Shown here: positions 8,802 to 42,503 of the stretch, one piece after another
How the letters are laid out: each line of letters starts with the position of its first letter
How positions within the stretch are numbered: position 1 is the first letter of the stretch
From: a virus
DNA: 42,503 bases
IMG/VR virus record: IMGVR_UViG_3300028610_000429
Direction: 5' to 3' (one strand)
The notes under the pieces: generated by a model
Database searches by the model: none
Told to the model about the DNA's origin: nothing
The model's input: only the letters and a program-made list of their open reading frames with translations
Program-made: the position numbers and the translations under genes

Positions 8802-9857
8802 CTAGCCTGTGATTCCAGTCATTTGACCCGTTCTTCGTGGGTCGTTTGACATCCAGTTACCAACTAAATACATGTGGCCGACTTCGGCTGGTTGATTAGT
8901 TGATCTTAACATTCCAGACCAATTGAATCCTTTAGGAATCGGTAAGGCTTGTGGTCCATCAATGTTAGCTTCTCCCGTGTTAAATTTTTCATAACCTGGA
9001 AGATTTAACCCTGCCCAAAAGAAGTTCTTCTCGTTTAACATAAACATCTTTTGAGATGTACACTTGTCATCCTTAACAAAAGGTGTGCCTCTGTACCATA
9101 AGGCGTTGAAACCAAGCGTACCTCCACTTAAAGCATTAGTACCGGAAACTACTCCAGTTCTAGTAACTTGTGGGAAGCCTGACGTTTGATATCCTGCTCT
9201 TACAGTAGGACTAAGCAAAGCTTCATAAGCAGACCAGATTGTAGGGGTTGAAACAATTAAACTTGGTCCAACACCACCAATTTCTACACCATCGTATCCG
9301 GTGGACATGTCTGATATTGCTAATGCACCGATTGTTGCGGCGTAATACCCTTTAAGACTTGCGTATGTGCCTCTAGGTTGTGCTCCATAATTAGCAAAAT
9401 TAGTAGAGTCATCAGCTGCATTTAAGATTGAATCAAATGAAGCTGCACCTGAAGCTGCACTGGTACCTGTGTAGATATAATCTCCTAGGTCATCAGTCAA
9501 GTCTTGTGCAATTGAATCCATTTCAACAGATAGTAATTCAAGGACTCTTTCGTCACCTTGATTTACTGCTACTTCAATGTCATCAACTACTACTGGTTTG
9601 TGAATACGTTGAGGTTCAAATTGCATTTTAATCCTCGTTTCCTGCCTTGATGTATCAAGGGTTCCACCAACTGGAACTAATCCACCTTCAGTAGATTTTT
9701 TGTATTTGATAGGGATATCATATCTGAAACCAGAACTCCAGCTCTTGGCGTTTCCAAGAGTTCTTAAAAGAAACACATTTCCTTCAAGAATGGTATCTGA
9801 AACTTGTGGTACGATTGTTTCCCTAGTAACCGTTTTTACGGCGTCTGAAAATTCCAT
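8802..9857 (-). CDS. Major capsid protein (HK97-fold type)
   Basis: 351 aa, immediately downstream of the portal and an acidic scaffold-like gene. Size and composition fit a T7-like capsid-gene arrangement. No database check was possible. Confidence 0.65.
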   Translation of the reverse strand: MEFSDAVKTVTRETIVPQVSDTILEGNVFLLRTLGNAKSWSSGFRYDIPIKYKKSTEGGLVPVGGTLDTSRQETRIKMQFEPQRIHKPVVVDDIEVAVNQGDERVLELLSVEMDSIAQDLTDDLGDYIYTGTSAASGAASFDSILNAADDSTNFANYGAQPRGTYASLKGYYAATIGALAISDMSTGYDGVEIGGVGPSLIVSTPTIWSAYEALLSPTVRAGYQTSGFPQVTRTGVVSGTNALSGGTLGFNALWYRGTPFVKDDKCTSQKMFMLNEKNFFWAGLNLPGYEKFNTGEANIDGPQALPIPKGFNWSGMLRSTNQPAEVGHMYLVGNWMSNDPRRTGQMTGITG

Positions 9858-9863
9858 CGTTTT

Positions 9864-10568
9864 TTACTTGAATTTTGATAATGCTTCCTTCGCAGCGTCA
9901 ACTATGCTTAACCCACTTGTCCTTAGCTTTTGAGGATCGTATGGAAGTTTTCCACCTTCCGAAGATGGTGTAGATACTCCATCTGCAGCTCGTTTCGCCT
10001 TATTGGCAAGAGCTACTCTTACTGCGGCTTTTCCATCAATGTTAGCTTCAGAATAAGTAGAATATACAGATTTAAGATCATTAGGAGTCTTAACTGTAAT
10101 CTTGTGGCGATCGATATACCCGAAGAAATCTTTGTCATCGAAGTCTTTATCTTTCTTCTTGATCTCTTCCACAAAACTATCTACTTGCTTCTTAGCATCC
10201 TCAGTTTTCTTAACTTGAGCTTCGGTGGCATCTTTGCCTTGTTTCTCCTTATACTCAGCTAAGTCCTTTATATCTCCAGACAATTCCTGGAAAGTTTTAG
10301 GTTTCCAACCCTCTTTAAGCATGGCGGGTAAGCCTTCCTGCTCAGGATCCTTGTTACCAAGAGCTATCGCTAAAAGTTGCGATTTCTTAGTAAACTCTGG
10401 GAGTAACTCATCGTACTTACTAGAGTTTTCTAAAGATTTAGTCAATTGATCGACGGTATATTCTTTATCACCGATTTTGACTAATTCTCCTTTTGGTTCT
10501 CCCTCACCACCTTCTGGGGGTGTACCACTCTCGGCCTCGCCCTCTAGGTTTAAATTCTCGTCTGACAT
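9864..10568 (-). CDS. Scaffolding protein
   Basis: 234 aa, acidic and Lys/Glu-rich, helical. It lies between the portal and capsid genes. Confidence 0.55.
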   Translation of the reverse strand: MSDENLNLEGEAESGTPPEGGEGEPKGELVKIGDKEYTVDQLTKSLENSSKYDELLPEFTKKSQLLAIALGNKDPEQEGLPAMLKEGWKPKTFQELSGDIKDLAEYKEKQGKDATEAQVKKTEDAKKQVDSFVEEIKKKDKDFDDKDFFGYIDRHKITVKTPNDLKSVYSTYSEANIDGKAAVRVALANKAKRAADGVSTPSSEGGKLPYDPQKLRTSGLSIVDAAKEALSKFK

Positions 10569-10702
10569 GTATTTTGGCTATTATCATTGCCCCCTTAACA
10601 GTTATTCTCTACGAGATTCCATTAAGTTGCTTGATGAAAACAGCGGTTATGTTATTGCTCTATGTTTTATGTAAGATGCTCTCGAGCATAAGCATCAGTT
10701 CG

Positions 10703-12604
10703 TTATTTAGTTTCCTCTTTCGGTTTAGCTTTTGATAAATTCTTAAATTGCATCTTTAACTTGCTTAATATCTCTTGCTGTTCTTTAGGTGATTTCTTCT
10801 TAAATTCAGGATTCTTTACTATCTCATCTGTTTTCTTTCTAAGTTCTGCAATTGCAGTAGCTCTTTCGTCTGTTGGTTGAGCCGCTTGAGCCAATTCCTG
10901 TAATAATGCTATTCCATCTTTCATATTTTCTATATCTTCAGGATCTAATTCAAGAATTGAAAATGGGCTAACCTTATACATTTCAATCTGTTTTGCAGTC
11001 TCCATTGGGTTATCAAATTCAGCTGCCTCGAAGTATTGTAGTGGTGTTATCATTCCTGCAACTACTAGTTCTTTCGCTGTTTCTGCTCTATAAACTCTAT
11101 CTACTGGCATTATTTGGCCTGGAATTACCTTTATCTCGATTCCATCTTCAAGGTTGTCTTGCATTATTTCTATCACTCTCATGGCTGTTTCCTTTCCTAG
11201 TAACTTAGTGTAGTGGCTTTCAGTATAATTAATCTTCATGAACTGTAACTGCCAATTGTAGATTTCAAGGTGAAGTGTGTCTACCACGTCAACGAGTTCG
11301 TTTAATCTTTGGAAGCCTCTTTCTCTTAATATAGCTCTACCTGTGGCCGTTTCAGATCCCTCTCTCTCTCCTCTCATTGTTGCTTGAGTTCCAAATATAG
11401 ACTCTAGTGATTGAATAGACATTACTAGATCTTCTGTCACCATATTAGGTAAATCTCTTCCACTTTCTATCGTTACACCCATTCCTACTCCATCTCCGAT
11501 AATCATTCCTTCTGGGTCTGATTTCATTGCTTGCCACTCTCCTTTGCTCTTTAATTCCATGTGCTTCGTATCTATCTTCCATCTTCCATTGGCTGATGCA
11601 GCGTTATCTGAAATCTGTCTCTTTCTCTTGTTGATATTTTCTTGTAGAGATAAAACTTGTTCTATTAACGAAGTTTCTCCTACTTCTTTCTTTTCTACAT
11701 CCAACATTGTTGCGCAAATGTATGGATGAGTTGGTTTATCAAAATGATTGAAAAGGTATTGTTGATACTTATCGGCTTTCTTTTCTTTCTTCATCTCGGT
11801 AACTCTTCCTTCTCTTGTTCCTCTTGCACTTACTAAAAGTTTCTTTCTTTCTTTCATCTTGGCTTTATCAAATTTTCTCATTTCATCCTTATCAAAGAAT
11901 ACTCCATCCCAATCCCAATAAGGATTTAACTCTTTCTTTAAAATTTCCCCTCTAAACTCATGAACAACCCAATCTCCTAACCAAGCTTCTTTATATGAAA
12001 CAGGGTCATTCTTAATTCTCGCATCAATTTCATTCTTTCTTCCACCTGCTTTTTTCAAGATCTCTTCTACTTTGTCAGGAAACCTATCCAACATAGTGTC
12101 TATGTCAGTGTCTATCTGTTCTACGACATCACCATTTTCACTAAATCTTATACTTCTAGGATCTACTACTGCAAGGTCAAAGTCATCTTTATCATTATTC
12201 CAAATGTTTTTAAGAACTATTTTTCTTGATAATAACAACCATCTTAAACCTCTTCTTACTTTCTTTTTTAGCTTTAAAGTTCGGTATTTCTCTAAAAAGA
12301 CATCAGTTAAGTCTGTCGCTACTTGTCCTGATTCAGGACTTTCGTTACCTGGTAAGACATTTGGCTTTGATGGTCTTCCAGTAAGATTTCCTATTACACT
12401 TTCAACTGCTAAGAATACTCTATTGTCTCTAACTCTAGACTTCTTTCTAGGAATGGTCGCTACAACCGAATCATCATTTTGCCATACTCTCTTATTCTTC
12501 TTATAGGTCTCAGTAATTATCGCTGACGACTTATCTAAAGAAGTCCACCTGTTATTAATCAGACGTTTTAATCTTGTATCACTTAGATTTGAAATATCAA
12601 TCAT
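10703..12604 (-). CDS. Portal protein
   Basis: About 633 aa, downstream of the large terminase and upstream of scaffold and capsid. The track start at 12628 is TTG; the first ATG is at 12604 (MIDISNLSD). Confidence 0.6.
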   Translation of the reverse strand: MIDISNLSDTRLKRLINNRWTSLDKSSAIITETYKKNKRVWQNDDSVVATIPRKKSRVRDNRVFLAVESVIGNLTGRPSKPNVLPGNESPESGQVATDLTDVFLEKYRTLKLKKKVRRGLRWLLLSRKIVLKNIWNNDKDDFDLAVVDPRSIRFSENGDVVEQIDTDIDTMLDRFPDKVEEILKKAGGRKNEIDARIKNDPVSYKEAWLGDWVVHEFRGEILKKELNPYWDWDGVFFDKDEMRKFDKAKMKERKKLLVSARGTREGRVTEMKKEKKADKYQQYLFNHFDKPTHPYICATMLDVEKKEVGETSLIEQVLSLQENINKRKRQISDNAASANGRWKIDTKHMELKSKGEWQAMKSDPEGMIIGDGVGMGVTIESGRDLPNMVTEDLVMSIQSLESIFGTQATMRGEREGSETATGRAILRERGFQRLNELVDVVDTLHLEIYNWQLQFMKINYTESHYTKLLGKETAMRVIEIMQDNLEDGIEIKVIPGQIMPVDRVYRAETAKELVVAGMITPLQYFEAAEFDNPMETAKQIEMYKVSPFSILELDPEDIENMKDGIALLQELAQAAQPTDERATAIAELRKKTDEIVKNPEFKKKSPKEQQEILSKLKMQFKNLSKAKPKEETK

Positions 12605-12720
12605 AATAAAAAAGCGAGCAAAGGACAAAATAGCAGTTTACTATTCTATCCTCTGCCCGCCGTGGATTTGGATTTTTATTTTCCGTCCGTGGTTAGGGCT
12701 TAGATTTATTACATTATAGT

Positions 12721-12909
12721 TTATTCAGTTTTTCTTGTCAAGTCTTTCTTCCTTTTATAGGGTTTAGTAACGAATGTCATGTCTTGAATTAATCCATTAT
12801 GTTTATCAATTATAACTTGGCCACTCTTCAAATCAAAGAAGCCCTTTTCTAATAATACTTTAACTTCCTCTTTAATTATTTCTTCTTTAGTCATGTTGAT
12901 GTTCTTCAA
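12721..12909 (-). CDS. 62-aa protein, unknown
   Basis: Track ORF overlapping the 3' end of the terminase gene. Confidence 0.45.
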   Translation of the reverse strand: MKNINMTKEEIIKEEVKVLLEKGFFDLKSGQVIIDKHNGLIQDMTFVTKPYKRKKDLTRKTE

Positions 12910-14461
12910 TTATTTCTTTTAGTGGTCTCATTATAAACCCATCACTAGTTCTTTCTATGATCTTCTTTTCTTCAGACTTCTCTGAAACAAACTCCACCTT
13001 ACTCATTTTTCTCATTTTAGCTATTTGAAAATAAACAGTTGCATGAGAGAAGTGATCTACTCCTGTCTTTGAATCCCAAATGTACCTTTCTGTTCCTAAT
13101 GGTGTTATTTCGATTATCTTTCTCATTGACTCCCAATGCCTAATATAGACCTCTAAATCCTGTCTGTTTATAGCAAATTGAATGTTCCCTTTTACTATCT
13201 CGTCTATTACCTTGTCTATGATTCTAGTCCGGTCAGTCCAAACATAACCCCAATTGTCTTGATCTGTTTTAGTCATTCCTCCCCACTTTACTATTTCCTT
13301 AACCTCTTTGTCCTTACGATAAAAACATAGAAACAGTTTAGGATACTTATTCTTAAACTCTTCGGCCCACGTTCTTTCTGGTCCTGCGTCCATAACTATA
13401 GTAGGATTGTATTTTTCAATAACTGATTCCAACTCTTCTCTACTTTGACAAGTTCCAGTTTTGAAGATTCCATCCTCTGAACCTATAACATAATGCTTGA
13501 TTCTTCCGATATCAATACCCATGTAAAAAGGTTTTTTGTCCAATGGCTTTGCAGACCAACCATCCATAATCGCCTGCCTAATGTCAGCTTGTTCTCCCAC
13601 GCTGTAAGGTTCTCCTAATATGAAGTTTCTGAAATAATCCTCTCCTCGTAGTTCTTTTTCTCTAATTAGGTCTTTAGCAGACAGCCAGGGAGCCATCATT
13701 TGAGAAATGTGATATCCTGATACCTCTTTCCCCGAAACTGTTGGTTTCCACCTACCTAGCTTTCTGTCTTTGTCAGTAATCTCTTCATTGCAGCTATTAC
13801 AAACATACAATCCTTTTATCTCATCAACGTTCTCTTCCCACTTGAGATATTGTTCTTTTTTACATTTAGAACAAGTAATGAACCATTCTTTCTTATCTGA
13901 TAGTTGCCAGATTTCATCCACTCCTACTCCTACCAAACTAGGATTAGATAAATACCACGTTCCTTTGTATGGTGACGCTGTAATTCTTGATTTATAAGTT
14001 TCAATAGTTCCTAAATCACTTCTATCAATCTCGTCATGAATTAAAAGGTCAGCGGTAGTTGATATAGCTACACTCTTTGATCTCGTACCCTTGTAATAAA
14101 TAAATCTGTCATTGATTTGCTTTAGCCCAACAGTATCACTACTAAACTTCCTCCTTAAAACCTCATTGGCCTGAAATATCTTATCTGCTTTAGTCTTTAC
14201 AAACTCACTAACCTCAGAATCAGACGGCATTGTGTATATCACATTGAACCTTCCTTTGTCTGCAGCATAATAAGCTTTTAATGTAAAAATAACAGATCCA
14301 CCAATCTGCGCACATTTCTTTATTGCTTGCACTGGAGTAAAGTCCTCCAATATATCTATTAGGTATCCTCTATCTTTGAACTCTAGTAATTCTCCTTTCT
14401 CATTTACTATCTTGTTACTTAAAATCCAGTGAAGTATTGAAACATCCTCTGGCTTTACCAT
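12887..14461 (-). CDS. terL: Terminase large subunit
   Basis: 524 aa. It has a Walker-B-like LLIHDEIDR, a CxxC...CxxC zinc ribbon (CSKCKK...CNSCNEE) as in GpA-type terminases, and a C-terminal nuclease-like Asp-containing motif (MGIDIG). It sits directly upstream of the portal. Confidence 0.75.
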   Translation of the reverse strand: MVKPEDVSILHWILSNKIVNEKGELLEFKDRGYLIDILEDFTPVQAIKKCAQIGGSVIFTLKAYYAADKGRFNVIYTMPSDSEVSEFVKTKADKIFQANEVLRRKFSSDTVGLKQINDRFIYYKGTRSKSVAISTTADLLIHDEIDRSDLGTIETYKSRITASPYKGTWYLSNPSLVGVGVDEIWQLSDKKEWFITCSKCKKEQYLKWEENVDEIKGLYVCNSCNEEITDKDRKLGRWKPTVSGKEVSGYHISQMMAPWLSAKDLIREKELRGEDYFRNFILGEPYSVGEQADIRQAIMDGWSAKPLDKKPFYMGIDIGRIKHYVIGSEDGIFKTGTCQSREELESVIEKYNPTIVMDAGPERTWAEEFKNKYPKLFLCFYRKDKEVKEIVKWGGMTKTDQDNWGYVWTDRTRIIDKVIDEIVKGNIQFAINRQDLEVYIRHWESMRKIIEITPLGTERYIWDSKTGVDHFSHATVYFQIAKMRKMSKVEFVSEKSEEKKIIERTSDGFIMRPLKEIIEEHQHD

Positions 14462-14958
14462 CTACGTAGTTCTTTTTCTTTTAGTGATAATCCCCTTAAT
14501 CCTGTTCTTAATTTCTTATTGAATCTCTTCTCATCTATTCTTGCCAGTCTTTTATTGAACTCTTCATAAGGTTCTCCATATTGAGTTTTAAATCCAAATT
14601 GACCTGCTCTAAGGAAGTCTAAGGCGTATTCATTCCTTTGTCGTCTTATCTTACGAGATTTGTTGTAATAAGGGTCTTGGTCCCTGTGGGTAGCATACCT
14701 AATTGCCTCCTTTCCACATTCAGGACATATTCCTCTGATTGTTGAGATCTTATGGCCATCTAACCTATAACTTGTTTTTCTTGCTGATGAAACAAAATCC
14801 TCCTGGCAAGTATCACACCAAAAATCATAAGACTTTAAGAATTGAGGAATGTCGTCATCCATTCTCTCGTTTGGCTTGGGCTTCCTTCTTTCTTTGTCTT
14901 TAGCTAGTTCTTTCTGTATTTCTTTAGTCCTTTGAGTTAGTCTTTCTACTTCGTTCAT
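14455..14958 (-). CDS. 167-aa zinc-ribbon protein, function unknown (small-terminase position)
   Basis: CDTCQ...CPECGK motifs, basic composition. It overlaps the terL start. Confidence 0.5.
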   Translation of the reverse strand: MNEVERLTQRTKEIQKELAKDKERRKPKPNERMDDDIPQFLKSYDFWCDTCQEDFVSSARKTSYRLDGHKISTIRGICPECGKEAIRYATHRDQDPYYNKSRKIRRQRNEYALDFLRAGQFGFKTQYGEPYEEFNKRLARIDEKRFNKKLRTGLRGLSLKEKELRRW

Positions 14959-15152
14959 AAGAACTTCTTTAAGTATTTTATTGGATATTGTCTAAAGTAT
15001 TTCCAATTACCCCAAAAACTTGGAGATTCAGGATTAAACTCTTGGATAGTTCTTATTTCAGCCTTCTCCTCTATCTCTATTACATCTGGATTGTTTTTAT
15101 CACACCAACTGCCTAATTCTGTTAGTGTCGCTATATTGTTTGGTAATTTCAT
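14955..15152 (-). CDS. 65-aa protein, paralogue of 15500..15682
   Basis: MKLPNNIATLTELGSWCDKNNPDVIEIEEKAEIRTIQEF aligns with MKIPNNIKTLTKLSDWCEKNNPKTIEISKSANIKLIREF. Confidence 0.6.
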   Translation of the reverse strand: MKLPNNIATLTELGSWCDKNNPDVIEIEEKAEIRTIQEFNPESPSFWGNWKYFRQYPIKYLKKFL

Positions 15153-15265
15153 AATAAGTAAAATTTTATTAATTGATAAGTAATATAAAATCCAGCAACA
15201 ATGTATAAAAATATGTTGGTTATTAAAAGGATACTTATAACGTGATTGATTGTTATCTTAATCAT
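15149..15265 (-). CDS. 38-aa hydrophobic peptide (below the track threshold)
   Basis: ATG at 15265. Its TGA overlaps the next ATG (ATGA). Translation is MIKITINHVISILLITNIFLYIVAGFYITYQLIKFYLL. Confidence 0.4.
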   Translation of the reverse strand: MIKITINHVISILLITNIFLYIVAGFYITYQLIKFYLL

Positions 15266-15503
15266 CTTCCTTTGCTGGTTTAGCGAATAATTTAAAGAAC
15301 CGACTTAATCCTTTAGGTCTCTCTGCCTCATCAACCTCTTGACGTGTTGGCTCACCAATAAACTCAACCTTACGCTTTGGATTGATTGGCTCGAGTGTTA
15401 CATTCTCACCCTTCTTATCAATTTTAATCTCAAAACCTCTCTTGTTTGTTATAAACGTAGAGATTAGATGGCCTAGTAATACTCCTAATAAAAATTTAAT
15501 CAT
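15258..15503 (-). CDS. 81-aa protein with an N-terminal TM
   Basis: Track ORF; FLLGVLLGHLISTFI is a hydrophobic helix. Confidence 0.55.
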   Translation of the reverse strand: MIKFLLGVLLGHLISTFITNKRGFEIKIDKKGENVTLEPINPKRKVEFIGEPTRQEVDEAERPKGLSRFFKLFAKPAKEDD

Positions 15504-15682
15504 TTTAAATAGTTTAGTTTAATACCTCTAAACCACTCCCAACTCCACTGATAGTTTTTATTATCAAACTCTCTAATCAATTTAATGTTTGCACTCTTGC
15601 TTATTTCTATTGTTTTTGGGTTGTTTTTCTCACACCAATCGCTTAACTTTGTTAATGTTTTTATATTGTTTGGTATCTTCAT
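15500..15682 (-). CDS. 60-aa protein, paralogue of 14955..15152
   Basis: See the alignment given for 14955..15152. Confidence 0.6.
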   Translation of the reverse strand: MKIPNNIKTLTKLSDWCEKNNPKTIEISKSANIKLIREFDNKNYQWSWEWFRGIKLNYLK

Positions 15683-15694
15683 AGTTTTTTATTA

Positions 15695-15940
15695 TTAAAT
15701 TATTAATCTAAACCACAACAATTTTTGTATAGTTTTATATCCTCTTCTATTAAAATAATTAGCCCCTTTACTACTTTTATTAAACTTTTCTAGCTCTATG
15801 AACGTTTTTTCGTTGCAGATAAATGATCCACAATAAGCACCTAACACACTACTAACATCTACAATAAACTCATCTTCAAAAATAGATATTTCGTCATGGC
15901 CTCTCCATATTTCACTGCTTTTAATTAGTTTTTCTTTCAT
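15695..15940 (-). CDS. 81-aa protein, unknown
   Basis: Track ORF. Confidence 0.5.
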   Translation of the reverse strand: MKEKLIKSSEIWRGHDEISIFEDEFIVDVSSVLGAYCGSFICNEKTFIELEKFNKSSKGANYFNRRGYKTIQKLLWFRLII

Positions 15941-16001
15941 AATTCTTTAGGTTGAATTAACCATAGTATAAACATTATTACAAAGACTGTTTCAGGAATT
16001 G

Positions 16002-16517
16002 TCATTCTTCTTCTATCTCCTTATGAAGAGCTTCTTTGATTTCTTCACTTGTTTTAGCTACGACTTTTAAAATGTTTGTGTTCTTCGTTAAGAAGATATT
16101 CAAGGCAGGTCTCAACATTAAGGCTTCTTTTCCAATTGGTTTATCCATTTCTATTCTACTCACTTCCCACATTTTCTTGAAATCTGATGGCGTTGGAATT
16201 ACTTTTCCTTTCTCTATCTGCTCAACAGCCTTTTCCATTACAATCTTTGTCATTTCTAAGATTCGTTCTTTGCTTAATACTTTATCATCCACAGCCGTTC
16301 TTTTAACTATATCTAATACTGAATTATCCATTGCCCTAGTTTTTCTCACCCAATCATTTCCAACACTCCAAACCCTTAAACTACCCATGCTTACTTTTAT
16401 GCCTTTTTTGATACAAAGTTGATCTAATTTTTTTAGACTTCTACTCTTACCTAAATTGAAATAAATAAAGAATGCTTCCTTCTGTTTTATCTCTGATTTA
16501 GTTAGTAGTTTTTTCAT
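16002..16517 (-). CDS. 171-aa putative DNA-binding protein; candidate small terminase subunit
   Basis: N-terminal HTH-like segment (SRSLKKLDQLCIKKGIKVSMGSLRVWSVGNDW). It lies upstream of the packaging genes. The functional call is weak. Confidence 0.35.
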   Translation of the reverse strand: MKKLLTKSEIKQKEAFFIYFNLGKSRSLKKLDQLCIKKGIKVSMGSLRVWSVGNDWVRKTRAMDNSVLDIVKRTAVDDKVLSKERILEMTKIVMEKAVEQIEKGKVIPTPSDFKKMWEVSRIEMDKPIGKEALMLRPALNIFLTKNTNILKVVAKTSEEIKEALHKEIEEE

Positions 16518-17210: not shown

Positions 17211-18800
17211 TTATTTTTTATCTTTTTCCTCTGGTAAATCGACTATTACAACCTCTGTTATTAAGAATAGAGAAATTACACTCACTGCATTTTCTAATGC
17301 TACTCTTACAACTTTTGCTGGGTCTATTATTCCTGCCTTTAGTAAATCAACATATTCTCCTGTTGCTGAATTATAACCTCTTGACACACTGTCTTTTGTC
17401 TTTTCTAATATAACATCTGGCTTACCTCCTGCGTTAAGAATAATCTGCTTGGCTGGTTCTCTGATTGCGTTGTATAAAATTCCTAATCCTAGTCTTGTAC
17501 TCATATTCTTTTCTAATAACATTTTCTTTTCTATTTCTTTCGAAGCTTGAATCAGGGTCATTCCAGCGCCAGGTACAATTCCTTCCTCGATTGCTGACAT
17601 TGTAGCTCGAACTGCGTCTTCAATTCTGTATCTCTTTTCTTTGTTCTCTTGTTCAGAGATTGTTCCTACTTTAATTATAGCAATACCACCTTTAAGTTTA
17701 GCAATTCTCTTTTTCAATAATTCTTTCTGATAGTCTGATTCTTCTTTCTTCATTGCTAAAGTTAACTCTTTGATCCTTTTATTGATTGCTGACTTACTGC
17801 CTCCACCTCCAATAATTGTAGTTTTGTCTTTACTTATAATTACTCTATCGGCTTGCCCTAATTCAGTTAATCCTACATCTTCAACTTTTATTCCTATTTC
17901 TTCAGTAATTAACTTAGCTCCTGTAAGAATAGAAATGTCTTGTAGTTTGTTTTGTTTGTCATTTCCATAACCTGGAGCTTTAACTGCTGCAATTCTAAGT
18001 TTTCCTCTAATCTTGTTTAAAACAACAGTAGGCAATGCTTCACCGGAAACGTCATCAGCTATAATTAAAAGAGCTTTATTATCAGCTCCATAAACTTCGT
18101 CTAATACTCCAATGATTTCTTCGTTAGTGCTGATTGCTTGAGATGTTACTAATATATAAGGTTTTTCTATAATAGTCTCCATTCTCTCGGGATGAGTTAT
18201 CATGTATGGAGAAATAAAACCTTTATCAATCTGAAGTCCTTTGACTATCTCTTGCTGGAGTCCAATAGTATGAGATTCTTCTACTGCTATAATTGCGTCT
18301 TTACCAATCTTTTTAATAATATCTGCAATAGTTCTTCCAATCTTAGCATCCCTTGAGGCGATAGTTCCTACACTCTCGACATCTTTATCTTTAGTGAGTG
18401 GCTTGGCCATCTTTTTAATTGTTCCTACTGCTATTTCTAAACCCATAAGCAAACCTTTCTTTAACTCAATTACATCTACACCTGCGGCCATAGCTTTTAA
18501 TCCTTCTTTTAAAATATGTTGAGCAAGAATTGTAGCCGTCGTGGTTCCGTCTCCTGCTTCCTTATCAGTCTTGTTAGCTATATCTTTGACTAAATCACAG
18601 CCCATAGCTTCAACAGGGTCTTTCAGTTCTACATTATTAGCCACAGTAACTCCGTCTAATGAAAAAGTAGAAGTTCCTTTTTTGAAAGCGACCACTCTTC
18701 CTTTAGGTCCTAAAGTAACCTTGACTGCATTAGATAGAATGTCTACTCCTTTTTGAAGCTTCTTTCTAGCCTCGTCAGAAAATAGTATTTGTTTGTTCAT
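17211..18800 (-). CDS. groL: Chaperonin GroEL (Cpn60), phage-encoded
   Basis: 529 aa. The N-terminus ([31 protein letters not shown]) is GroEL-like and the nucleotide-binding motif is [12 protein letters not shown]. Similarity extends over the full length. The protein ends ...DLPEEKDKK with no Gly-Gly-Met tail. Confidence 0.9.
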
Positions 18801-19090
18801 TTTTCTTCTTTAATCAAACGTTTAATAATTCTTAAAATATGATCTTGATGATTTCTTGCTTTTGTTGCCTCAGTTAAAGCATCTTTTGCCTTAATATCTC
18901 TTCTTGTAGGTGGTAGTTGTGGATTACCACTTGGTATCATCATTATTTTTGCAACATCATTAGGTTTCATTTCAGAGTAATAAATTGCGTTTATTTTATG
19001 AGTCAAAAACTTCTCTAAATGTGTATTATGAAATGCTCTTAATCCATCTAAGACACTTAATTGAATTACTTGTTCTTTTTTTTCTTCCAT
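18797..19090 (-). CDS. 97-aa protein, unknown, lying between the HNH gene and groEL
   Basis: Track ORF. Its stop overlaps the groEL start. Confidence 0.55.
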   Translation of the reverse strand: MEEKKEQVIQLSVLDGLRAFHNTHLEKFLTHKINAIYYSEMKPNDVAKIMMIPSGNPQLPPTRRDIKAKDALTEATKARNHQDHILRIIKRLIKEEK

Positions 19091-19095
19091 GTTTT

Positions 19096-19629
19096 TTAGT
19101 TTATATTTTTATGAACTTCTATATGGCATTTTCGACATAATGTAACGCCATTTTCTATAGATGTTCTCAATTTTTTGTTTCTTGCAAAACTTTTAATGTG
19201 ATGTGCGTTTAGTATCAATTTTCTTTTTCCACACTCCTGGCAAGTCCAATTATCCCTCGCAAAGACTGATTCTCTCCATAGTCGATATTCAATACTCCTT
19301 CTTATTTTATCATTTTCGGTGGTAACACCTCCTTTCCAAGCTGGATTTTTACTTCCCCGATAATGTGGAGGAGTAGCCCACGGGCATTTCTTCCCTTTCA
19401 ACGCCTCGCTAATTTTCTTGCTAACTCTCTTCTTATATTCTGGGTTTTTCCATCTTTTTTTAGAAGACTGAGCTATTTTCTTTTTTACTTTTTTAGTATG
19501 TTTCCTACCTATATTTATTTTTCTTAATTTCTGCTTAGTTTTTTCTGTTGTTACTTTCCCCAGATTTATCTTATCTCCTTTCTTAAACCACCCTTTGTTT
19601 TTTCCACTCTTTGGAATTCCTTTTGGCAT
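19096..19629 (-). CDS. HNH homing endonuclease (NUMOD-like basic N-terminus, C-terminal HNH)
   Basis: NPAWKGG...WR..VF.RD..TCQECG...LNAHHIKSF...NGVTLCRKCHIEVH. It sits between groES and groEL. Confidence 0.8.
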   Translation of the reverse strand: MPKGIPKSGKNKGWFKKGDKINLGKVTTEKTKQKLRKINIGRKHTKKVKKKIAQSSKKRWKNPEYKKRVSKKISEALKGKKCPWATPPHYRGSKNPAWKGGVTTENDKIRRSIEYRLWRESVFARDNWTCQECGKRKLILNAHHIKSFARNKKLRTSIENGVTLCRKCHIEVHKNIN

Positions 19630-19631
19630 TT

Positions 19632-19919
19632 TTAAGATATCTTAGCAAATATATCTCTCTCTCGACAAACAAGATACTCTTCTCCATCTACCTTAATTGA
19701 TTGTGGTATAAACGGATCTAAAATAATAATATCTCCTACTTTCAAATTAACTTTCCTAAATTTTCCACTTTTGTCTATTTCGCCAGGACCAACAGCAATA
19801 ACCTTTGCTTTTGAAGGCCTAGATTTAGAAACATCAGCTAATACTATTCCTGATTTTGATTCTTTTTTCTTTTCCCATAGAAGAAATACAAAATCATTGA
19901 GAGGTTTTATTTTTAACAT
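19632..19919 (-). CDS. groS: Co-chaperonin GroES (Cpn10), phage-encoded
   Basis: 95 aa. IKPLNDFVFL...SGIVLADVS...AKVIAVGPGE...LKVGDIIILD...EEYLVCRERDIFAKI matches the GroES pattern along its length. Confidence 0.85.
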   Translation of the reverse strand: MLKIKPLNDFVFLLWEKKKESKSGIVLADVSKSRPSKAKVIAVGPGEIDKSGKFRKVNLKVGDIIILDPFIPQSIKVDGEEYLVCRERDIFAKIS

Positions 19920-20010
19920 GCGTTTTTTTGCGTTGGTTTCTAATATCTCGACGGTGTTGCTTCTTACGCTTTTTCTTTTTACTCATGTCTTATTACTATA
20001 TTCTAACATT

Positions 20011-28351: not shown

Positions 28352-28371
28352 GGGAGATAATTTTATCTCCC
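28352..28371 (-). terminator. Hairpin GGGAGAT-AAAATT-ATCTCCC at the 3' end of the HNH gene
   Basis: A 7-bp stem overlaps the stop codon of 28363..28980. It is followed by ACTATTTC and then immediately by the -35 of P3. Confidence 0.5.
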
Positions 28372-28980
28372 TGCATTTCGGACTTTGCGTCTGAAATACT
28401 TAATGTAAGACTTAAACCTCTTTTCAAAATTCTTTTCTTTACCTCTAGTCAAAAGGTGGCATTTCTTGCATAAAGTTATTCCATTGCTTAGTTCAAATCT
28501 TAATTCTGGATAATCAACCCATCTTTTTACATGATGAGCTTCTAAATTTTTACCTCTTTCTTTACACAACATACAGGTATAATCGTCTCTCTTGAAAACC
28601 TTATTCACCCATTGTATATTGTCTTTATTTCTTAATGGTCTACATTTTAATTTACTTCTATCTTTTACCCATCTGATGTTGTTTTCTCCAGTATAAAAAG
28701 AATGCCGACATTTAGCAGAACAAAAGTTATGTTTATGTTCTCTTATTTTGTTCCATTTAGCTATAGAAGAATGCACAAAATAATCTTTCTTGCAGTTATA
28801 ACAAATAAATTTTACTTTTTCTTTTACTCTAGATTTTCCCATACACTCGTAAGAACAATACTTTCCTATCTTTATATAACTCGGTTTTACATAAAATTCT
28901 TTTTTACAAATAGGACAAACGAGTATTTTTCCTTTTCTTGTTCTTCCTCCTGTTTTTTTTCTTCCTTTTTTAAATAACAT
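28363..28980 (-). CDS. HNH homing endonuclease (free-standing cassette)
   Basis: VFKRDDYTCMLCKERGKNLEAHHVKRW...[13 protein letters not shown]. It has N-terminal CxxC zinc ribbons, its own extended -10 promoter, a structured leader and a hairpin terminator. Confidence 0.8.
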   Translation of the reverse strand: MLFKKGRKKTGGRTRKGKILVCPICKKEFYVKPSYIKIGKYCSYECMGKSRVKEKVKFICYNCKKDYFVHSSIAKWNKIREHKHNFCSAKCRHSFYTGENNIRWVKDRSKLKCRPLRNKDNIQWVNKVFKRDDYTCMLCKERGKNLEAHHVKRWVDYPELRFELSNGITLCKKCHLLTRGKEKNFEKRFKSYIKYFRRKVRNAGR

Positions 28981-38040: not shown

Positions 38041-38991
38041 TTATTCTATTGTTATGTCATTTGTCCATAGAATAGCGAAGTCTTCTATGCTTAAATCTCT
38101 CGTTTGGAGAGGTTCGACATATACACTCTCACTCCTTTGCAAATCGTTTATTATTAGGTTTCTTAACATTCCACCTACAACAGAAGTTAATCCTGCTTCC
38201 TTTCCACCATCATACATTCTCCAGTATCTCTCTGCCATAGTAGGATCTTCTAAATGTTGATAGTAAAGCGCTAATGGTCTGAAATAAAGTAGTGGATGAA
38301 ATTCTCCTGGAACATGTGAAAATTCTCCTATTGTATAAGATTCAGTTTGTCCGGTAAAAGTAGTTCCTTCAAATCCTTTAACTAACTCTAATGCTAAAAC
38401 ACCTGTAATAGAATCAATTTCATACCATCTAAAATCTCCATAGGTATAATCTATTCTCATATAATTTCCTATGGCGTTTGTGGCCCAAGCGGTATCTGTT
38501 CCACCTACTGTTTCGTCTCCATTCGTAGCGGCTGCAATAGTTCCGGTCGTGTAATCTGCAAGAGATAAATCTCTTAATCTTCTAGTTCCTCTTATTTGAA
38601 TCTCGCTATCTGCTGTAGCTGGTTCTGGCCACAATAAAACCTTATTGCCTTCTTTCATAAAGAATCTTGTTATATCAGAGTCTCCTGACTGCATTGACTG
38701 TAAATACTCCCAAAATCGAGGATCTTCTACTGGTCTTGGTCTATAAATAACTCCACCATCCATCGTTATTTTAACACTTCTAATACTTTGAATTTGATTA
38801 GGAATTTGATAACCCTCTTGTGAAGCAACAGTACCTACAGTATCGGTTATTTCAAGAGATAAAAGAGGTGCTTTGGCTGACACTATTTTATTAGTATCAT
38901 TAACCCACCTTTTAAAAATAGTTAATTGAGCAGCAGAAGTATCTCCTGTGATATTTTGAAGCTCTGTATATAATTCTTGAAATGATTTCAT
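38041..38991 (-). CDS. 316-aa structural-module protein (adaptor or tail component candidate)
   Basis: Track ORF with ordinary globular composition. Confidence 0.55.
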   Translation of the reverse strand: MKSFQELYTELQNITGDTSAAQLTIFKRWVNDTNKIVSAKAPLLSLEITDTVGTVASQEGYQIPNQIQSIRSVKITMDGGVIYRPRPVEDPRFWEYLQSMQSGDSDITRFFMKEGNKVLLWPEPATADSEIQIRGTRRLRDLSLADYTTGTIAAATNGDETVGGTDTAWATNAIGNYMRIDYTYGDFRWYEIDSITGVLALELVKGFEGTTFTGQTESYTIGEFSHVPGEFHPLLYFRPLALYYQHLEDPTMAERYWRMYDGGKEAGLTSVVGGMLRNLIINDLQRSESVYVEPLQTRDLSIEDFAILWTNDITIE

Positions 38992-39461
38992 CTTTTTGAA
39001 ATTAATTTATAATTTTTATTAAAATTGCTTCCATAAGTATCGGTTTTCTTATGGCAATCCCTACAAAGTGTTCTTCCATTATCTATCGCAAATCTTAATT
39101 CTGGGAATAAAGCAAATGGCTTTATATGATCTGCTTGTAAGTTTCCACCTTTATCATCTCCGCAAAAAACACAAGTATAGTTATCTCTTTCAAAAACTGC
39201 TTTTCGCCAAATTTTATATTCTTTTGATTTTCTTAATCTATCCAATTCAGGATAATCTTTCATCTTTCCACCCTTCCAATTTGGATGATTTTTACCACAA
39301 GGAAACTTATAAGCATTTGGGTATTTTTTTCTTCCTTTCATCCATTTACCAACTCCTATTCTTTTATGAGTTTTACTTATTTTAGTTCCTGCTTTTTTTC
39401 TTGCATTTTTGGAAACTAAATCTTTATGACCTTTTTGAAATCCTTTTATTCCTTTTGGCAT
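38988..39461 (-). CDS. HNH homing endonuclease inserted between structural genes
   Basis: NHPNWKGG...WRKAVFERDNYTCVFCG...LQADHIKPF...NGRTLCRDCHKKT. The track start at 39497 is TTG; the ATG is at 39461 (MPKGIKGFQKGHK). Confidence 0.8.
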   Translation of the reverse strand: MPKGIKGFQKGHKDLVSKNARKKAGTKISKTHKRIGVGKWMKGRKKYPNAYKFPCGKNHPNWKGGKMKDYPELDRLRKSKEYKIWRKAVFERDNYTCVFCGDDKGGNLQADHIKPFALFPELRFAIDNGRTLCRDCHKKTDTYGSNFNKNYKLISKR

Positions 39462-39471
39462 ATACTGAATT

Positions 39472-41265
39472 TTATCGTTTACTTTGGTTAAATTCAATGA
39501 GCAATTCTTCTATCTCTGGAGAACTCTCTGTCCCCCGAAGTTCTATTTTAAATTGAATCCATTTTGACCTTTTTGCTATCTTATAAAGCTGTTTAGCGAC
39601 TGTCTGGCTTGAAATTGCTCCTAACTTAGTCCAATTCATTAGTCTTGCGTCTGCGTCTCCTGAAGCCCCAGGTATCGCTTCGTCTATAGTAACAGTATAA
39701 GTTGGATCTGTATAACTCACAGCTGAAATATGTGCTGTTGCTCCTGCTCCCTTTCCTACTATAATCTCAACTTCTTGGCCTACAGCGGCATAAGCGAACA
39801 TTGCTTGAGTAGAAGTAAAAGTTTTCGTACTTGTCCAAGTTATTTCGTTTGCTTTAACGTACCCGGTTGTATGGTATAAGTTTGAATTTTTATCATTTCT
39901 ATATTTTACTACTATTCTGTCTGTGGAATTTTCTAATTTTTTAAATGCTATATTTAATCTCTTCCAAAAAGCTCTTACATTAGAAGAAGCAATTTGTGTT
40001 GTCACAAAATATCCTCTATTAGTAACACTGCTTTTTACTTGAGAAGTTAGTATCGCCTTAATAGTGGTTGACTCATTATCAGAATAAACAGAACAACCTG
40101 CTAAAAATCTTCCTTGTGAAGGGTTAGTTTCTACTAAAGCGCCATTTGGTCCAAAATTACCTGCCCCCCAATCATTGTCGGTAGATCCATCGTATTGTCC
40201 TACAGAGTATTTATGATAAAGACCTACATCTTTGTCATAAACCCATATTCCTCCAAGCATATTTTCTAGTAATAAAAATCCATTTCCGGGATTACCAGGA
40301 GAAGCATCTAAAAGTATATGGATTCTATTTCCGATAAGACACATTCCGTTGTGATGAACCATTTGTAAAATAGTAGAGTTATCTTCCCAAGTTATTCCAC
40401 TTTCAGTTATTGGAAGAGCAGCTACTTCAGCAAACCCTTCACCGTCATAAGCTAATAATTGCCCCTTTCCGTTTATTGTGTGCATTACACCATTCTCGTC
40501 TACACAACCAGCCCAAGAAATATCGCTATCTGGAGACAAAGGAGAATCATAGGTTTCGCTTGTTCCATCCCAAGGGAAGATTAACCCTACACCCCCCCTT
40601 ACATGTTTTGTTCCTATATACACTCTGTACCCATCATCAGCAACCCACACTATCTCATATTCTTTCGGTAAAGTTATCCTATTTTCTACCACAACCAAAC
40701 TGTCATCTATTGTATGAATTGTGTTTATATTAGTTACTAAAAGTAAATTTATAAATTTATGGAGAATATGTTTTCCAGCCGTTAAAGCTGTTCCACTTAA
40801 AGTGGTTTGCCACCAAGACGTGTCCCAAACTCCGTTATTAAGCATTGATAAATCAGTATTCCTTGCCACTATTAATCTGTCATAACTATTAGCCTGACCA
40901 AAGATTTCCATATCTGTCATTGCCGCAGTTGGAGTATCTCCTATAGCATCTTGCGTCCATCCTACTAAAGGATCAGTATTAGTTGTTTTAAACATTAATC
41001 CATCAGTTGAAGCCGCAAGTGCAGATTGAGTCAAAGCCCACCACCTATCTGTTTTATCTGCATCACTTCTTATAAACTTTGCAGCAGTCTCAAGATCAGC
41101 GTCATCTCCACTATCAACCAACCTATAAATCCTTTCTGATAATCTTATTTTTCCTTTATTTGCTTCTAAGTCTATGTTTTTAGTTGCCCAAAGATTACCA
41201 AGAACTTCTCCTCTTGAAGCTCTGACGAATCGTTTTGTTTCTGGATTTGGTATGGTTATTTGCAT
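39472..41265 (-). CDS. 597-aa large structural protein (tail or nozzle candidate)
   Basis: Track ORF, beta-rich and Trp/Gly-rich. It is flanked on both sides by HNH genes. Confidence 0.55.
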
Positions 41266-41834
41266 TTTATAATTTTAGTAAATTCTTTTTCAAAACTTTT
41301 TTCTTTTCTTTTTGTTAAGTTGTGGCACTTTTTACAAAGTGTTATTCCGTTGTTAATTTTAAATCTTAATTTAGGATATTTTACAGATTGTTTTATATGG
41401 TGTGCCTCTAAATATCCACCTCGCTTTTTGCATTTTTGACAAGTAAATCTATCTCTCTCAAATACTGATAATCTCCACAATTTCCACTCAATACTATTAT
41501 AAATCTTATTTCTTTCTGATGTAACCCCTCCTTTCCAAGCTGGGTTTTTACTACCCTTCTTACCCTCACTCATTTTCTTTCTCGATTCTTTAGACATCTT
41601 CTTTCCTATGCCAATCTTACCAAATCCTTGCCTTATTGCATTTTCTCTCATCTTTTCTTTTGTTTCTTTAGAAACTATCTTACCTTTATGTCTTAAACTA
41701 TTCTGTCTTTTCCATTCTTCTGTGTGCTTATATCCCAAACTATTCTTGTGTCCTAAACAGTTTTTATTTCCTTTATTAGCTTCACTAATCTTTCTTGTAT
41801 GTTCTCTCGTTTGTTTATATCCTTTTTTACACAT
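41256..41834 (-). CDS. HNH homing endonuclease with NUMOD3-like repeats
   Basis: Repeated G.K.T.E.K.K.S motifs, then NPAWKGG...[16 protein letters not shown]...LEAHHIKQS...[13 protein letters not shown]. The track start at 41849 is TTG; the ATG is at 41834. Confidence 0.8.
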
Positions 41835-41845
41835 ATATTTTATGC

Positions 41846-42503
41846 TCAACGAAGCACATTCCTTGACTGGAGATATTCAAAAAATGAAAATTGCATTGTT
41901 TTCGCTGCTTCTGCATTTGTCGTAATTTCAAACCTCATTAAACTTATATTAGGAGTCGCTACCCTTGAAGGAAGATTCTCGTTTATTACTCCTTTTTCAT
42001 CTGAATCAACATAAAATACTATTTTACTTGCAGGAGTATATCTTGCCTCAACATTGAATTGAGCAGTAGTAATAGTCTGTAGTTCTACAGTCTTTTCAGT
42101 AGTTCCATCATAACTTACTCCATATAGAGTATTATTTACAACCTTAAACCCATAATAAGAGAATCCTTCAGTTATTTGTCCCACAATGGCATAGGCTGTA
42201 ATATCTGCTACGCTAGCAAAAATAAGAGTAGTTCTCATTCTACTTCTTTCCGAGAAAGTAATCACTCCTTGTTTTGCTGGTTGCTTAAACACAAATGCTG
42301 TATTGTCTTCTGCGGCAGAGGTTGTTATTTCAACCAATCCAAGAGTTAGATCCTGTGCATCAGCTGTAACAGAGAACCCATCTAAACTTTCAAAGAAAGT
42401 AACCCAATGGAATGTTCTCTTCCAAATTAAGTCAAAAATCTTATTTTCTAAAAACTTATCTACAGTTTTTTCTATGATGCTTTCGCTTTTTTTATCTAAT
42501 GGG
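41846..42503 (-). CDS. 3' segment of the wrap-around ORF (unique part 41846..42385; 42386..42503 duplicates codons also encoded at 1..118)
   Basis: The track entry 41846..42337 begins at an internal TTG. The frame stays open to the window edge and joins 186..1 once the duplicated 118 bp is removed. The C-terminal domain is beta-rich. Confidence 0.7.
42386..42503. repeat. Terminal direct repeat, right copy (identical to 1..118)
   Basis: Exact 118-bp duplicate of the left end. Confidence 0.95.

Follow-up and report, generated by a model that had tools for sequence, protein, structure and literature searches.

A groES–groEL chaperonin cassette with a conserved middle gene and an inserted HNH endonuclease gene in a small phage genome

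The DNA analyzed here is a viral sequence of 42,503 nucleotides (nt), IMG/VR record IMGVR_UViG_3300028610_000429, referred to as the window. Its chaperonin locus consists of four consecutive genes on the minus strand, encoding a GroES-like co-chaperonin, a free-standing HNH endonuclease, a small orphan protein (ORF97, or ORFmid when its family is meant) and a GroEL-like chaperonin. All four open reading frames (ORFs) lie exactly where the initial annotation had placed them. The locus is probably a phage-borne group I chaperonin module of three ancestral genes, groES, ORFmid and groEL, into which the HNH gene has been inserted, and the proposed module sits directly upstream of DNA-packaging and head genes. 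The GroES/GroEL pair is of a known kind; the HNH gene is as well, and its insertion is ordinary in itself. The new element is the conserved third gene in a family of small-genome phages, and this middle gene is the part worth following up.

Phage GroEL/GroES pairs are known from viromes and are mechanistically almost unstudied. The present locus defines a coherent family of phages with small genomes, all carrying the three-gene chaperonin module. It offers a tractable system, with three short genes and an obvious candidate client in the neighboring capsid gene, and it bears on why a phage brings its own folding cage rather than using that of the host.

The GroES and GroEL pair

Full-length GroES and GroEL proteins are encoded, as initially claimed, and profile searches recover both over their entire length. 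GroEL scores 605.1 bits against the NCBIfam GroEL equivalog model TIGR02348 (cutoff 582.1), with residues 3–525 aligned to positions 2–526 of the 526-position profile. It also matches Pfam PF00118 and PHROG 5725 ('chaperonin groEL'), and its alignment with solved GroEL structures extends over the entire protein (E = 1e-147). GroES matches the Pfam Cpn10 model PF00166 with 83.3 bits (cutoff 21.1) over profile positions 1–93 of 93; PHROG 3188 is matched as well, and the protein aligns with solved GroES structures (E = 2e-17).

Functional residues were compared with an E. coli GroEL reference sequence, the numbering of which was validated at 32 canonical residues. The residues of ATP binding and hydrolysis, G32, P33, D52, D87, T89–T91 (GDGTTT), D398, and D495, are kept in the window and in nine clade members, and the nucleotide-binding motif pointed out in the initial annotation is present. 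The apical and mobile-loop residues, whose comparison had been proposed there, are likewise conserved or conservatively replaced. The apical positions considered are the hydrophobic binding sites for substrate and for the mobile loop of GroES (Y199, Y203, F204, L234, L237, L259, V263, and V264); all are hydrophobic in the window, with the conservative substitutions Y199F, F204M, L234I, and V264L. The mobile loop of GroES (...KSGIVLADVSK...) contains an intact G-I-V-L, and G-[IV]-[IV]-L is found in 8/8 cassette relatives aligned; a glycine followed by three hydrophobic residues is the mobile-loop criterion given by Marine et al. (2017; PMC5649160). The window GroES also retains the roof hairpin. 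Since the ATPase residues, the apical hydrophobic sites and the GroES loop are all kept, the pair appears equipped for a canonical ATP-driven, lid-closed folding cycle, the requirements of which are present at the residue level.

Several features weigh against a machine working exactly as the E. coli one does. GroES falls below the cutoff of every NCBIfam GroES subfamily model and is therefore a diverged co-chaperonin. The E. coli-type double ring is held together by the contacts R452–E461, S463/V464, and K105–E434, and its subunits end in a tail of Gly-Gly-Met (GGM) repeats. Throughout the window clade the inter-ring contact sites are changed (R452K, E461K, S463D, and E434K), and the GroEL C-terminus is short, rich in K, E, and D, and free of GGM repeats; in the window it reads ...DLPEEKDKK, in agreement with the missing tail noted in the initial annotation. 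Positions 452, 461, and 463 are among those mutated in the single-ring GroEL variant SR1. Neither the inter-ring contacts nor the GGM tail is needed for family membership, and mitochondrial Hsp60 and the chaperonin of phage EL also differ in these features. Because the inter-ring sites are altered and the tail is missing, the oligomeric state and the cycle may differ from those of E. coli GroEL. The substitutions suggest that the ring–ring interface is altered or absent in the window clade, and a single-ring or re-registered double-ring GroEL is possible.

Pseudomonas phage EL gp146 and the single-ring phage chaperonins of OBP and AR9 are without the GGM tail, like the window GroEL. The rings of EL gp146 separate during the cycle, which is co-chaperonin-independent and apparently proceeds without encapsulation, and the protein does not bind GroES (PMC7185714); in the window clade, the inter-ring contact positions 452, 461, and 463 are substituted. 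Unlike EL, the window phage has a genuine GroES whose mobile loop is intact, and its GroEL is much closer to cellular GroEL than that of EL, passing the GroEL equivalog cutoff. A GroES-type lid supplied by the phage, presumably for capsid folding, is also found in T4 (gp31) and RB49 (CocO). These two phages encode the lid only and use the GroEL of the host, whereas the window phage brings its own GroEL. T4 gp31 and CocO have no roof hairpin, and their sequences do not reveal them as Cpn10 proteins, unlike the window GroES, which is a recognizable Cpn10 with a roof hairpin.

The roof hairpin varies among the related loci (designated by L numbers). The segment GPGxxDxxG is present in the GroES of the window, L001, L002, L005, and L008, and the GroES proteins of L006 (3410–3658), L007 (3346–3600), and L010 (3437–3685) are about eight residues shorter and do not contain it. 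Marine et al. (2017; PMC5649160) also describe this presence/absence dimorphism of the roof hairpin for viral co-chaperonins.

A three-gene cassette and its HNH insertion

Megablast with the 5-kb locus as query matched none of 50,697 phage records, so the phage has no close cultured relative. The best GroEL among these records is 47% identical and comes from Bacteroides phages; Flavobacterium and Cellulophaga phages are also among the nearest phage GroELs. A collection of 5.8 billion proteins yielded GroEL homologues grading from 74% to about 50% identity, mostly on contigs of 36–46 kb. A look-up for a protein identical to the window GroEL gave none, and the gene contexts of eight GroEL homologues and three distant ORF97 homologues were examined. 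The order Cpn10, ORFmid, Cpn60 was found in 10 of the 11 relatives, among the carriers being L001, L002–L004, L005, L006, L008/L009, L010, L012, L013/L014, and L016/L017, with GroEL proteins 48–91% identical to that of the window (91% in L001). The middle ORF of the relatives encodes 96–145 amino acids (aa), all recognized by a single ORFmid profile, and Cpn60 is followed by a few small genes and then by TerL and portal. The L007 locus fits the order, with a run of Ns interrupting ORFmid; the L015 sequence ends before any Cpn60 could appear.

The two junctions of the cassette differ in their spacing. In 10/10 loci, ORFmid either overlaps groEL or lies no more than 2 nt from it (gap of −19 to +2 nt). 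Between groES and ORFmid the gap ranges from −11 to +31 nt, with two exceptions: it is 541 nt in the window, occupied by HNH, and 697 nt in L012, occupied by two other ORFs. Judged by this spacing across loci, the first junction tolerates insertions and the second does not, and the difference between a permissive groES/ORFmid junction and a constrained ORFmid/groEL junction is the main genomic argument for functional coupling. From its overlap with the groEL start, ORFmid is predicted to be translationally coupled to groEL. The cassette comprises three ancestral genes, groES, ORFmid and groEL, and the module recurs throughout a family of uncultured tailed phages whose genomes measure about 36–46 kb. 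The initial annotation had described the canonical groES–groEL adjacency as broken by both an HNH gene and a 97-aa ORF; the HNH gene is indeed an insertion, but ORF97 belongs to the ancestral, conserved cassette. In L012 (3307–4004), the two small ORFs at the groES/ORFmid junction encode 69 and 163 aa and have no Pfam match; they are a second, independent insertion at the junction that carries HNH in the window.

Viral groES–groEL operons of other kinds provide the background for this cassette. In one estuarine virome (SERC), Marine et al. (2017, ISME J; PMC5649160) found GroES on 133 of the 337 contigs with a viral GroEL, 63 of those 133 in the order GroES>GroEL, and genes for small heat-shock proteins (sHSPs) lie upstream of viral GroES>GroEL operons on 25 contigs. 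Holdase-plus-cage modules thereby have a viral precedent. The operons described there resemble the window in their full-length GroEL, in the upstream position of GroES in the canonical order and in the conserved hydrophobic tripeptide of the mobile loop. In the text of that study consulted, no conserved gene is mentioned as separating groES from groEL, whereas the window family always has an orphan of about 100 aa coupled to groEL. The initial annotation had considered both partners unusual in a small genome, which holds for cultured phages but is not new, such pairs being already documented by Marine et al. (2017; PMC5649160). In the Bacteroides phages DAC16 and SJC03, groES and groEL are adjacent (in DAC16, GroES at 176194–176454 and GroEL at 176474–178060). 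The DAC/SJC03 genomes measure 167–179 kb versus 42 kb for the window, and no GroEL of the 50,697 phage records exceeds 47% identity to that of the window.

The HNH endonuclease gene reported between groES and groEL is confirmed by a match to Pfam PF01844 of 34.6 bits (cutoff 21.4). Its zinc-binding motif CQEC...CRKC (CxxC...CxxC) and its HH...N...H motif are intact, and a NUMOD3 match reaches 16.7 bits, under the cutoff of 20.4. The gene is spaced by 2 nt from groES and by 5 nt from ORF97 and disrupts neither neighbor. L001 has no HNH gene: 4 nt separate the stop codon of groES from the ATG of ORFmid, and about 45 bp stand in place of 587 bp of the window. None of nine further cassette-bearing loci has an HNH gene within the cassette either, so that the HNH-free alleles proposed earlier as a homing signature do exist.

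A tract of elevated divergence from L001 is centered on the HNH gene (Table 1). Nucleotide identity is 0.57–0.72 in the tract, compared with about 0.88 in groEL and 0.87–0.90 at the 5' end of groES. Among codons specifying the same amino acid in both sequences, 35 of 65 are identical in the tract and 807 of 1117 elsewhere (Fisher p = 0.003), and this excess of synonymous change indicates that the trough is not solely the result of relaxed protein constraint. The trough is compatible with, though not proof of, recombination or co-conversion around a mobile endonuclease gene. A point on the other side is that GroES and ORFmid may evolve faster, which could account for part of the trough in place of co-conversion.

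The cassette HNH gene is one of four paralogues in the genome, which share 40–63% identity in the nuclease domain. Relatives elsewhere, the best of them 48–56% identical, were found on 52 IMG/VR contigs and at least 210 metagenome contigs, and chaperonin genes lay within 3 kb in 0/132 of the loci examined. With the closest relatives elsewhere only 48–56% identical, a recent transfer from a known donor cannot be shown. The gene shares with phage HNH homing endonucleases (I-HmuI-like, NUMOD-containing) its form as a small intergenic ORF, an intact HNH/zinc-finger domain, and NUMOD3 in the family. It further resembles them in its presence/absence polymorphism between close relatives, in the several paralogues per genome and in the flanking divergence. 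The intergenic mob and seg genes of T-even phages serve as a behavioral model. By these features, it is classed as a free-standing homing-type endonuclease gene and a recent, lineage-specific invader of the cassette. It would have entered the spacer of a few nucleotides between groES and ORFmid by homing or illegitimate recombination, with co-conversion of the flanks, and would have no role in folding. The insertion is useful as a marker that the groES/ORFmid junction is permissive and the ORFmid/groEL junction constrained.

Two observations concern the HNH genes as a group. The four together occupy about 5% of the 42-kb genome. A gene encoding 597 aa (39472–41265) has an HNH gene on either side; its relatives are just 25–37% identical, too distant for HNH-free alleles to be compared there.

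Table 1. Features of the window. Positions refer to the 42,503-nt sequence; all features lie on the minus strand.
Feature	Position	Strand	Length (aa)	Matches and remarks
groES-like co-chaperonin gene	19632..19919	−	95	Pfam Cpn10, PHROG 3188, solved GroES structures
Free-standing HNH endonuclease gene	19096..19629	−	177	PF01844; between the groES stop and the ORF97 start
ORF97 (ORFmid), third cassette gene	18797..19090	−	97	Overlaps the groEL start by 4 nt (ATGA)
groEL-like chaperonin gene	17211..18800	−	529	TIGR02348, PF00118, PHROG 5725, solved GroEL structures
Tract of elevated divergence from L001, centered on HNH	18911..19814	−		groES codons 36–95 and ORF97 codons 1–60
Paralogous HNH gene	28363..28980	−	205	PHROG and Pfam HNH; 45% identical to the cassette HNH in the nuclease domain
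Paralogous HNH gene	38988..39461	−	157	PHROG and Pfam HNH; 51% identical to the cassette HNH over 82 aa
Paralogous HNH gene with NUMOD3	41256..41834	−	192	NUMOD3 at 42.7 bits (cutoff 20.4) and HNH; 63% identical to the cassette HNH over 79 aa
Packaging/head-morphogenesis module	8802..16517	−		PHROG matches; downstream of the cassette
TerS-like gene	16002-16517	−		PHROG match
TerL	12887-14461	−		PHROG match
Portal	10703-12604	−		PHROG match
Major capsid protein	8802-9857	−		PHROG match

The middle gene

ORF97 has no match in Pfam, NCBIfam or PHROGs. Word-indexed searches found three and then eight members of the ORFmid family, and an exhaustive HMMER search of 1.84 billion representatives found 119 at E ≤ 1e-3, of which 46 reach E ≤ 1e-10. 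Nearly all are 72–145 aa long, and neither the 8-member nor the 121-member set shows a consistent match to a Pfam family. The weakest member tested (E = 1e-4) still sits between Cpn10 and Cpn60. The ORFs upstream of the Cpn60 genes of the TM7 and Manatee Spring phages were considered as ORFmid homologues and rejected, being diverged GroES-like proteins. In the open-access literature searched, neither the middle gene nor any prefoldin-like phage protein was found described, and a search of it on chaperonins in phages of Candidate Phyla Radiation (CPR) bacteria returned nothing relevant.

An AlphaFold2 model built from eight sequences has a mean local confidence (pLDDT) of 90.3 and a predicted TM score (pTM) of 0.70; with 121 sequences, these values rise to 96.0 and 0.78 and the topology is unchanged. 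The predicted protein consists of a helix (residues 13–39), two strands (46–52 and 62–67) and a second helix (68–96). The conserved positions L17, N22, L25, I33, L86, and I89, together with the hydrophobic periodicity, fit two packed helices. Foldseek searches of the PDB with both models returned prefoldin beta as the top fold class (1fxk_A/B, 2zdi_A/B, 2zqm, and 3aei_A), with human prefoldin subunits in 6nr8 also among the top fold matches; the prefoldin matches have probabilities of up to 1.0 and TM scores of 0.58–0.64. ORFmid thus resembles prefoldin (GimC) beta in the predicted succession of helix, β-hairpin and helix, in size (97 aa against about 105–120 aa) and in the chaperonin linkage of its gene. 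It has a prefoldin-beta-like predicted topology and is not demonstrably a prefoldin homologue.

The resemblance has to be set against a number of contrary observations. The E-values of the prefoldin fold matches are weak (0.1–0.5), the fold is a simple one, and small-terminase oligomerization cores and other coiled coils are also among the weak matches. A search of the BFVD viral fold library returned just uncharacterized proteins and weak small-terminase matches. The ORFmid helices, of about 27–29 residues, are shorter than those of prefoldin. No sequence homology to prefoldin beta is detectable: 0/121 ORFmid members match the Pfam models Prefoldin_2 or Prefoldin at E ≤ 1, profile searches of PDB sequences with ORFmid gave no match and no prefoldin at E ≤ 10, and an hhalign comparison with a Pyrococcus horikoshii PFD-beta sequence gave a probability of 0.3%. 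No candidate for an alpha-class (two-hairpin) prefoldin partner was recognized in the cassette. Prefoldin partners group II chaperonins (thermosome and CCT), not GroEL, and to our knowledge it has not been described in bacteria or phages.

Strict synteny and the coupling at the second junction link ORFmid to the chaperonin, and we regard some functional link to GroEL as reasonably likely. The chaperonin would fold structural proteins of the phage late in infection; its client is most plausibly the major capsid protein, by analogy with T4 gp23/gp31 and lambda head assembly and in view of the position of the cassette. ORFmid would be made together with GroEL as an accessory. Because the two-helix arm and β-hairpin of the model resemble prefoldin beta, the prediction suggests an oligomeric holdase or adaptor that captures non-native clients and passes them to GroEL, and a role of this general type is the reading we prefer. 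A specifically prefoldin-like mechanism is unlikely. In its fullest form, which is speculative and quite unlikely, ORFmid would be a prefoldin-like co-chaperone, either invented by phages or acquired long ago, that works with a group I chaperonin. It would form a small homo-oligomeric holdase whose coiled-coil arms take hold of nascent capsid or other structural proteins and deliver them to the GroEL/GroES cage. The same specialization would then include the changes at the inter-ring sites and the absence of the GGM tail, for example in a single-ring or enlarged-cavity chaperonin. If ORFmid is a holdase or adaptor of GroEL, no prefoldin-like partner of a group I chaperonin would have preceded it, and viruses would have independently assembled the holdase-plus-cage logic of archaea and eukaryotes. 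A prefoldin-like ORFmid would also imply a three-component machine of lid, holdase and cage that is unknown in bacteria or their viruses.

Alternative explanations, origin and genomic surroundings

The middle gene could instead be unrelated to folding. Its product might be a regulator, an accessory in DNA binding or packaging, or a coiled coil resembling a scaffolding protein, and operon inertia alone would keep the gene next to groEL. Such a role would agree with the absence of sequence similarity to any chaperone, with a generic fold of helical hairpin plus β-hairpin that draws small-terminase oligomerization cores among its weak matches, and with the packaging genes adjoining the cassette. 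Distant Cpn60 phages (TM7 and Manatee Spring) moreover carry GroES-like and Cpn60 proteins without ORFmid. Inertia accounts less readily for a position directly upstream of groEL that is kept in all ten loci while ORFmid identity drops to 16–25% and that of GroEL to about 48%, for insertions that are tolerated on one side of ORFmid and never on the other, and for the weakest family member tested still lying between Cpn10 and Cpn60; a packaging role also meets a separate TerS-like gene already present in the window. We consider a non-folding ORF97 possible, if somewhat unlikely. For the HNH gene, the alternative is a functional phage component, either a terminase partner in genome-end cleavage or a nuclease acting on host DNA. 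Terminase-associated HNH proteins are widespread in phages (HK97-like systems), the cassette HNH also matches phrog_4581, annotated as a small terminase subunit, and about 2.6 kb separate it from the TerS-like gene. A functional component is nevertheless very unlikely, given that relatives with the same TerS, TerL and portal all do without HNH at this site, that four paralogues are scattered over the genome and the closest of them bears NUMOD3, typical of homing endonucleases, that the divergence trough is centered on the insertion, and that relatives of the gene occur in many unrelated contexts.

Two further explanations concern the origin of the chaperonin genes in the window. A chimeric contig, with phage and bacterial DNA joined at the chaperonin locus by misassembly, is suggested by nothing except the a priori strangeness of a GroEL inside a 42-kb phage, and its probability is virtually negligible. 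The G+C content at the locus is 0.32–0.35, and both composition and strand skew are the same as in the rest of the genome; the terminal repeat indicates a closed genome; more than 10 independent contigs from different studies carry the same cassette between the same replication and packaging genes; and L011, an independent assembly from a different sequencing run, reproduces the order groES–HNH–ORF97 and with it the HNH junction. The check for a join with host DNA proposed in the initial annotation accordingly found none. Recent capture of a host groESL operon, which the initial annotation had put forward as a means to identify the host, would agree with the canonical bacterial order groES>groEL, with Patescibacteria as the top named cellular GroEL matches and with the distant relationship (30%) of the capsid protein to its counterpart in a phage attributed to TM7/Saccharibacteria. 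The window GroEL is, however, only 44% identical to that of E. coli and 47–49% to those of Patescibacteria and Microbacterium, whereas E. coli GroEL is 56–61% identical to these same proteins. A neighbor-joining tree unites the verified cassette phages in a 53-tip clade from which all named cellular sequences are absent. From these identities and this clade, the chaperonin appears to be an old phage lineage rather than a recent capture, and the host is not nameable from GroEL. Moreover, all proteins more than about 51% identical whose context was examined lie in phage synteny, the middle gene and the K/E/D-rich tail are features of the whole clade, and locus composition equals that of the genome remainder. 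Recent host capture is not supported and is highly improbable; the evidence favors the other possibility raised at the outset, a diverged phage-specific folding machine.

Hints to the host point in two directions. No prophage relative turned up when 185,579 GTDB species genomes were scanned with a TerL alignment, and the TerL is about 25% identical to those of cultured phages, with the matches taxonomically scattered. Among the 50,697 phage records, the capsid protein has only two full-length matches, in a Manatee Spring Caudoviricetes genome (L018 = MG269973.1; 30.8%) and in TM7 phage DolZOral124_53_65 (L019 = MW202566.1; 30.4%), both of about 39 kb. In these two genomes a diverged GroES-like ORF lies directly upstream of Cpn60 and there is no ORFmid; a broader group of phages with genomes of about 40 kb may have carried chaperonins since long ago. 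The TM7 phage shares only capsid, portal and GroEL with the window. Its capsid match (30%), the top named cellular GroEL matches and several sample names of groundwater type hint at Patescibacteria. Shine–Dalgarno motifs (GGAG/GAGG/AGGA at −18 to −4) precede 2/55 genes, compared with a frequency of 16% at random positions, and the leader sequences are rich in A. Shine–Dalgarno depletion and A-rich leaders are typical of Bacteroidota and their phages. The depletion hints at a Bacteroidota-like host, in conflict with the weak hints to Patescibacteria, and the nearest phage GroELs, which include those of Bacteroides, Flavobacterium and Cellulophaga phages, are a further hint at Bacteroidota.

The window itself is a complete phage genome. 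An exact direct repeat of 118 bp at positions 1–118 and 42386–42503 indicates a genome of about 42.4 kb that is circularly closed or terminally redundant. The minus strand carries 55 ORFs of at least 60 aa in a single, near-continuous tight array, and no tRNA was found in the window. TerL, portal, major capsid protein and a TerS-like gene, together with the terminal repeat, bear out the viral (phage) nature of the sequence stated in the initial annotation. The products of the head and packaging module (Table 1) are likely to be the clients or the context of the chaperonin cassette; genes for NinG and a Cas4-like exonuclease lie on its upstream side.

Some relatives carry additional genes near the cassette. 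In L016 (8723–8983) and L017 (2957–3211), whose GroEL is 55% identical to that of the window, a protein of the Acb2/Tad1-hairpin family, a family of anti-CBASS/Thoeris sponges, is encoded a few genes upstream of Cpn10; the L016 contig, of 95 kb, also bears FtsK and RecT genes. The cassette-bearing L007 contig of 39.7 kb encodes a tyrosine integrase and a ParB-like protein (357–2673). Some members of the cassette family may be temperate or plasmid-like prophages.

A scan of the cassette for promoters and terminators gave nothing exceeding shuffled expectation. Just upstream, an ORF of 30 codons on the minus strand (19894–19986) encodes an extremely basic peptide, MSKKKKRKKQHRRDIRNQRKKTHVKNKTSQ, and stops within the first groES codons in another frame; it may be a genuine micro-protein or a chance ORF.

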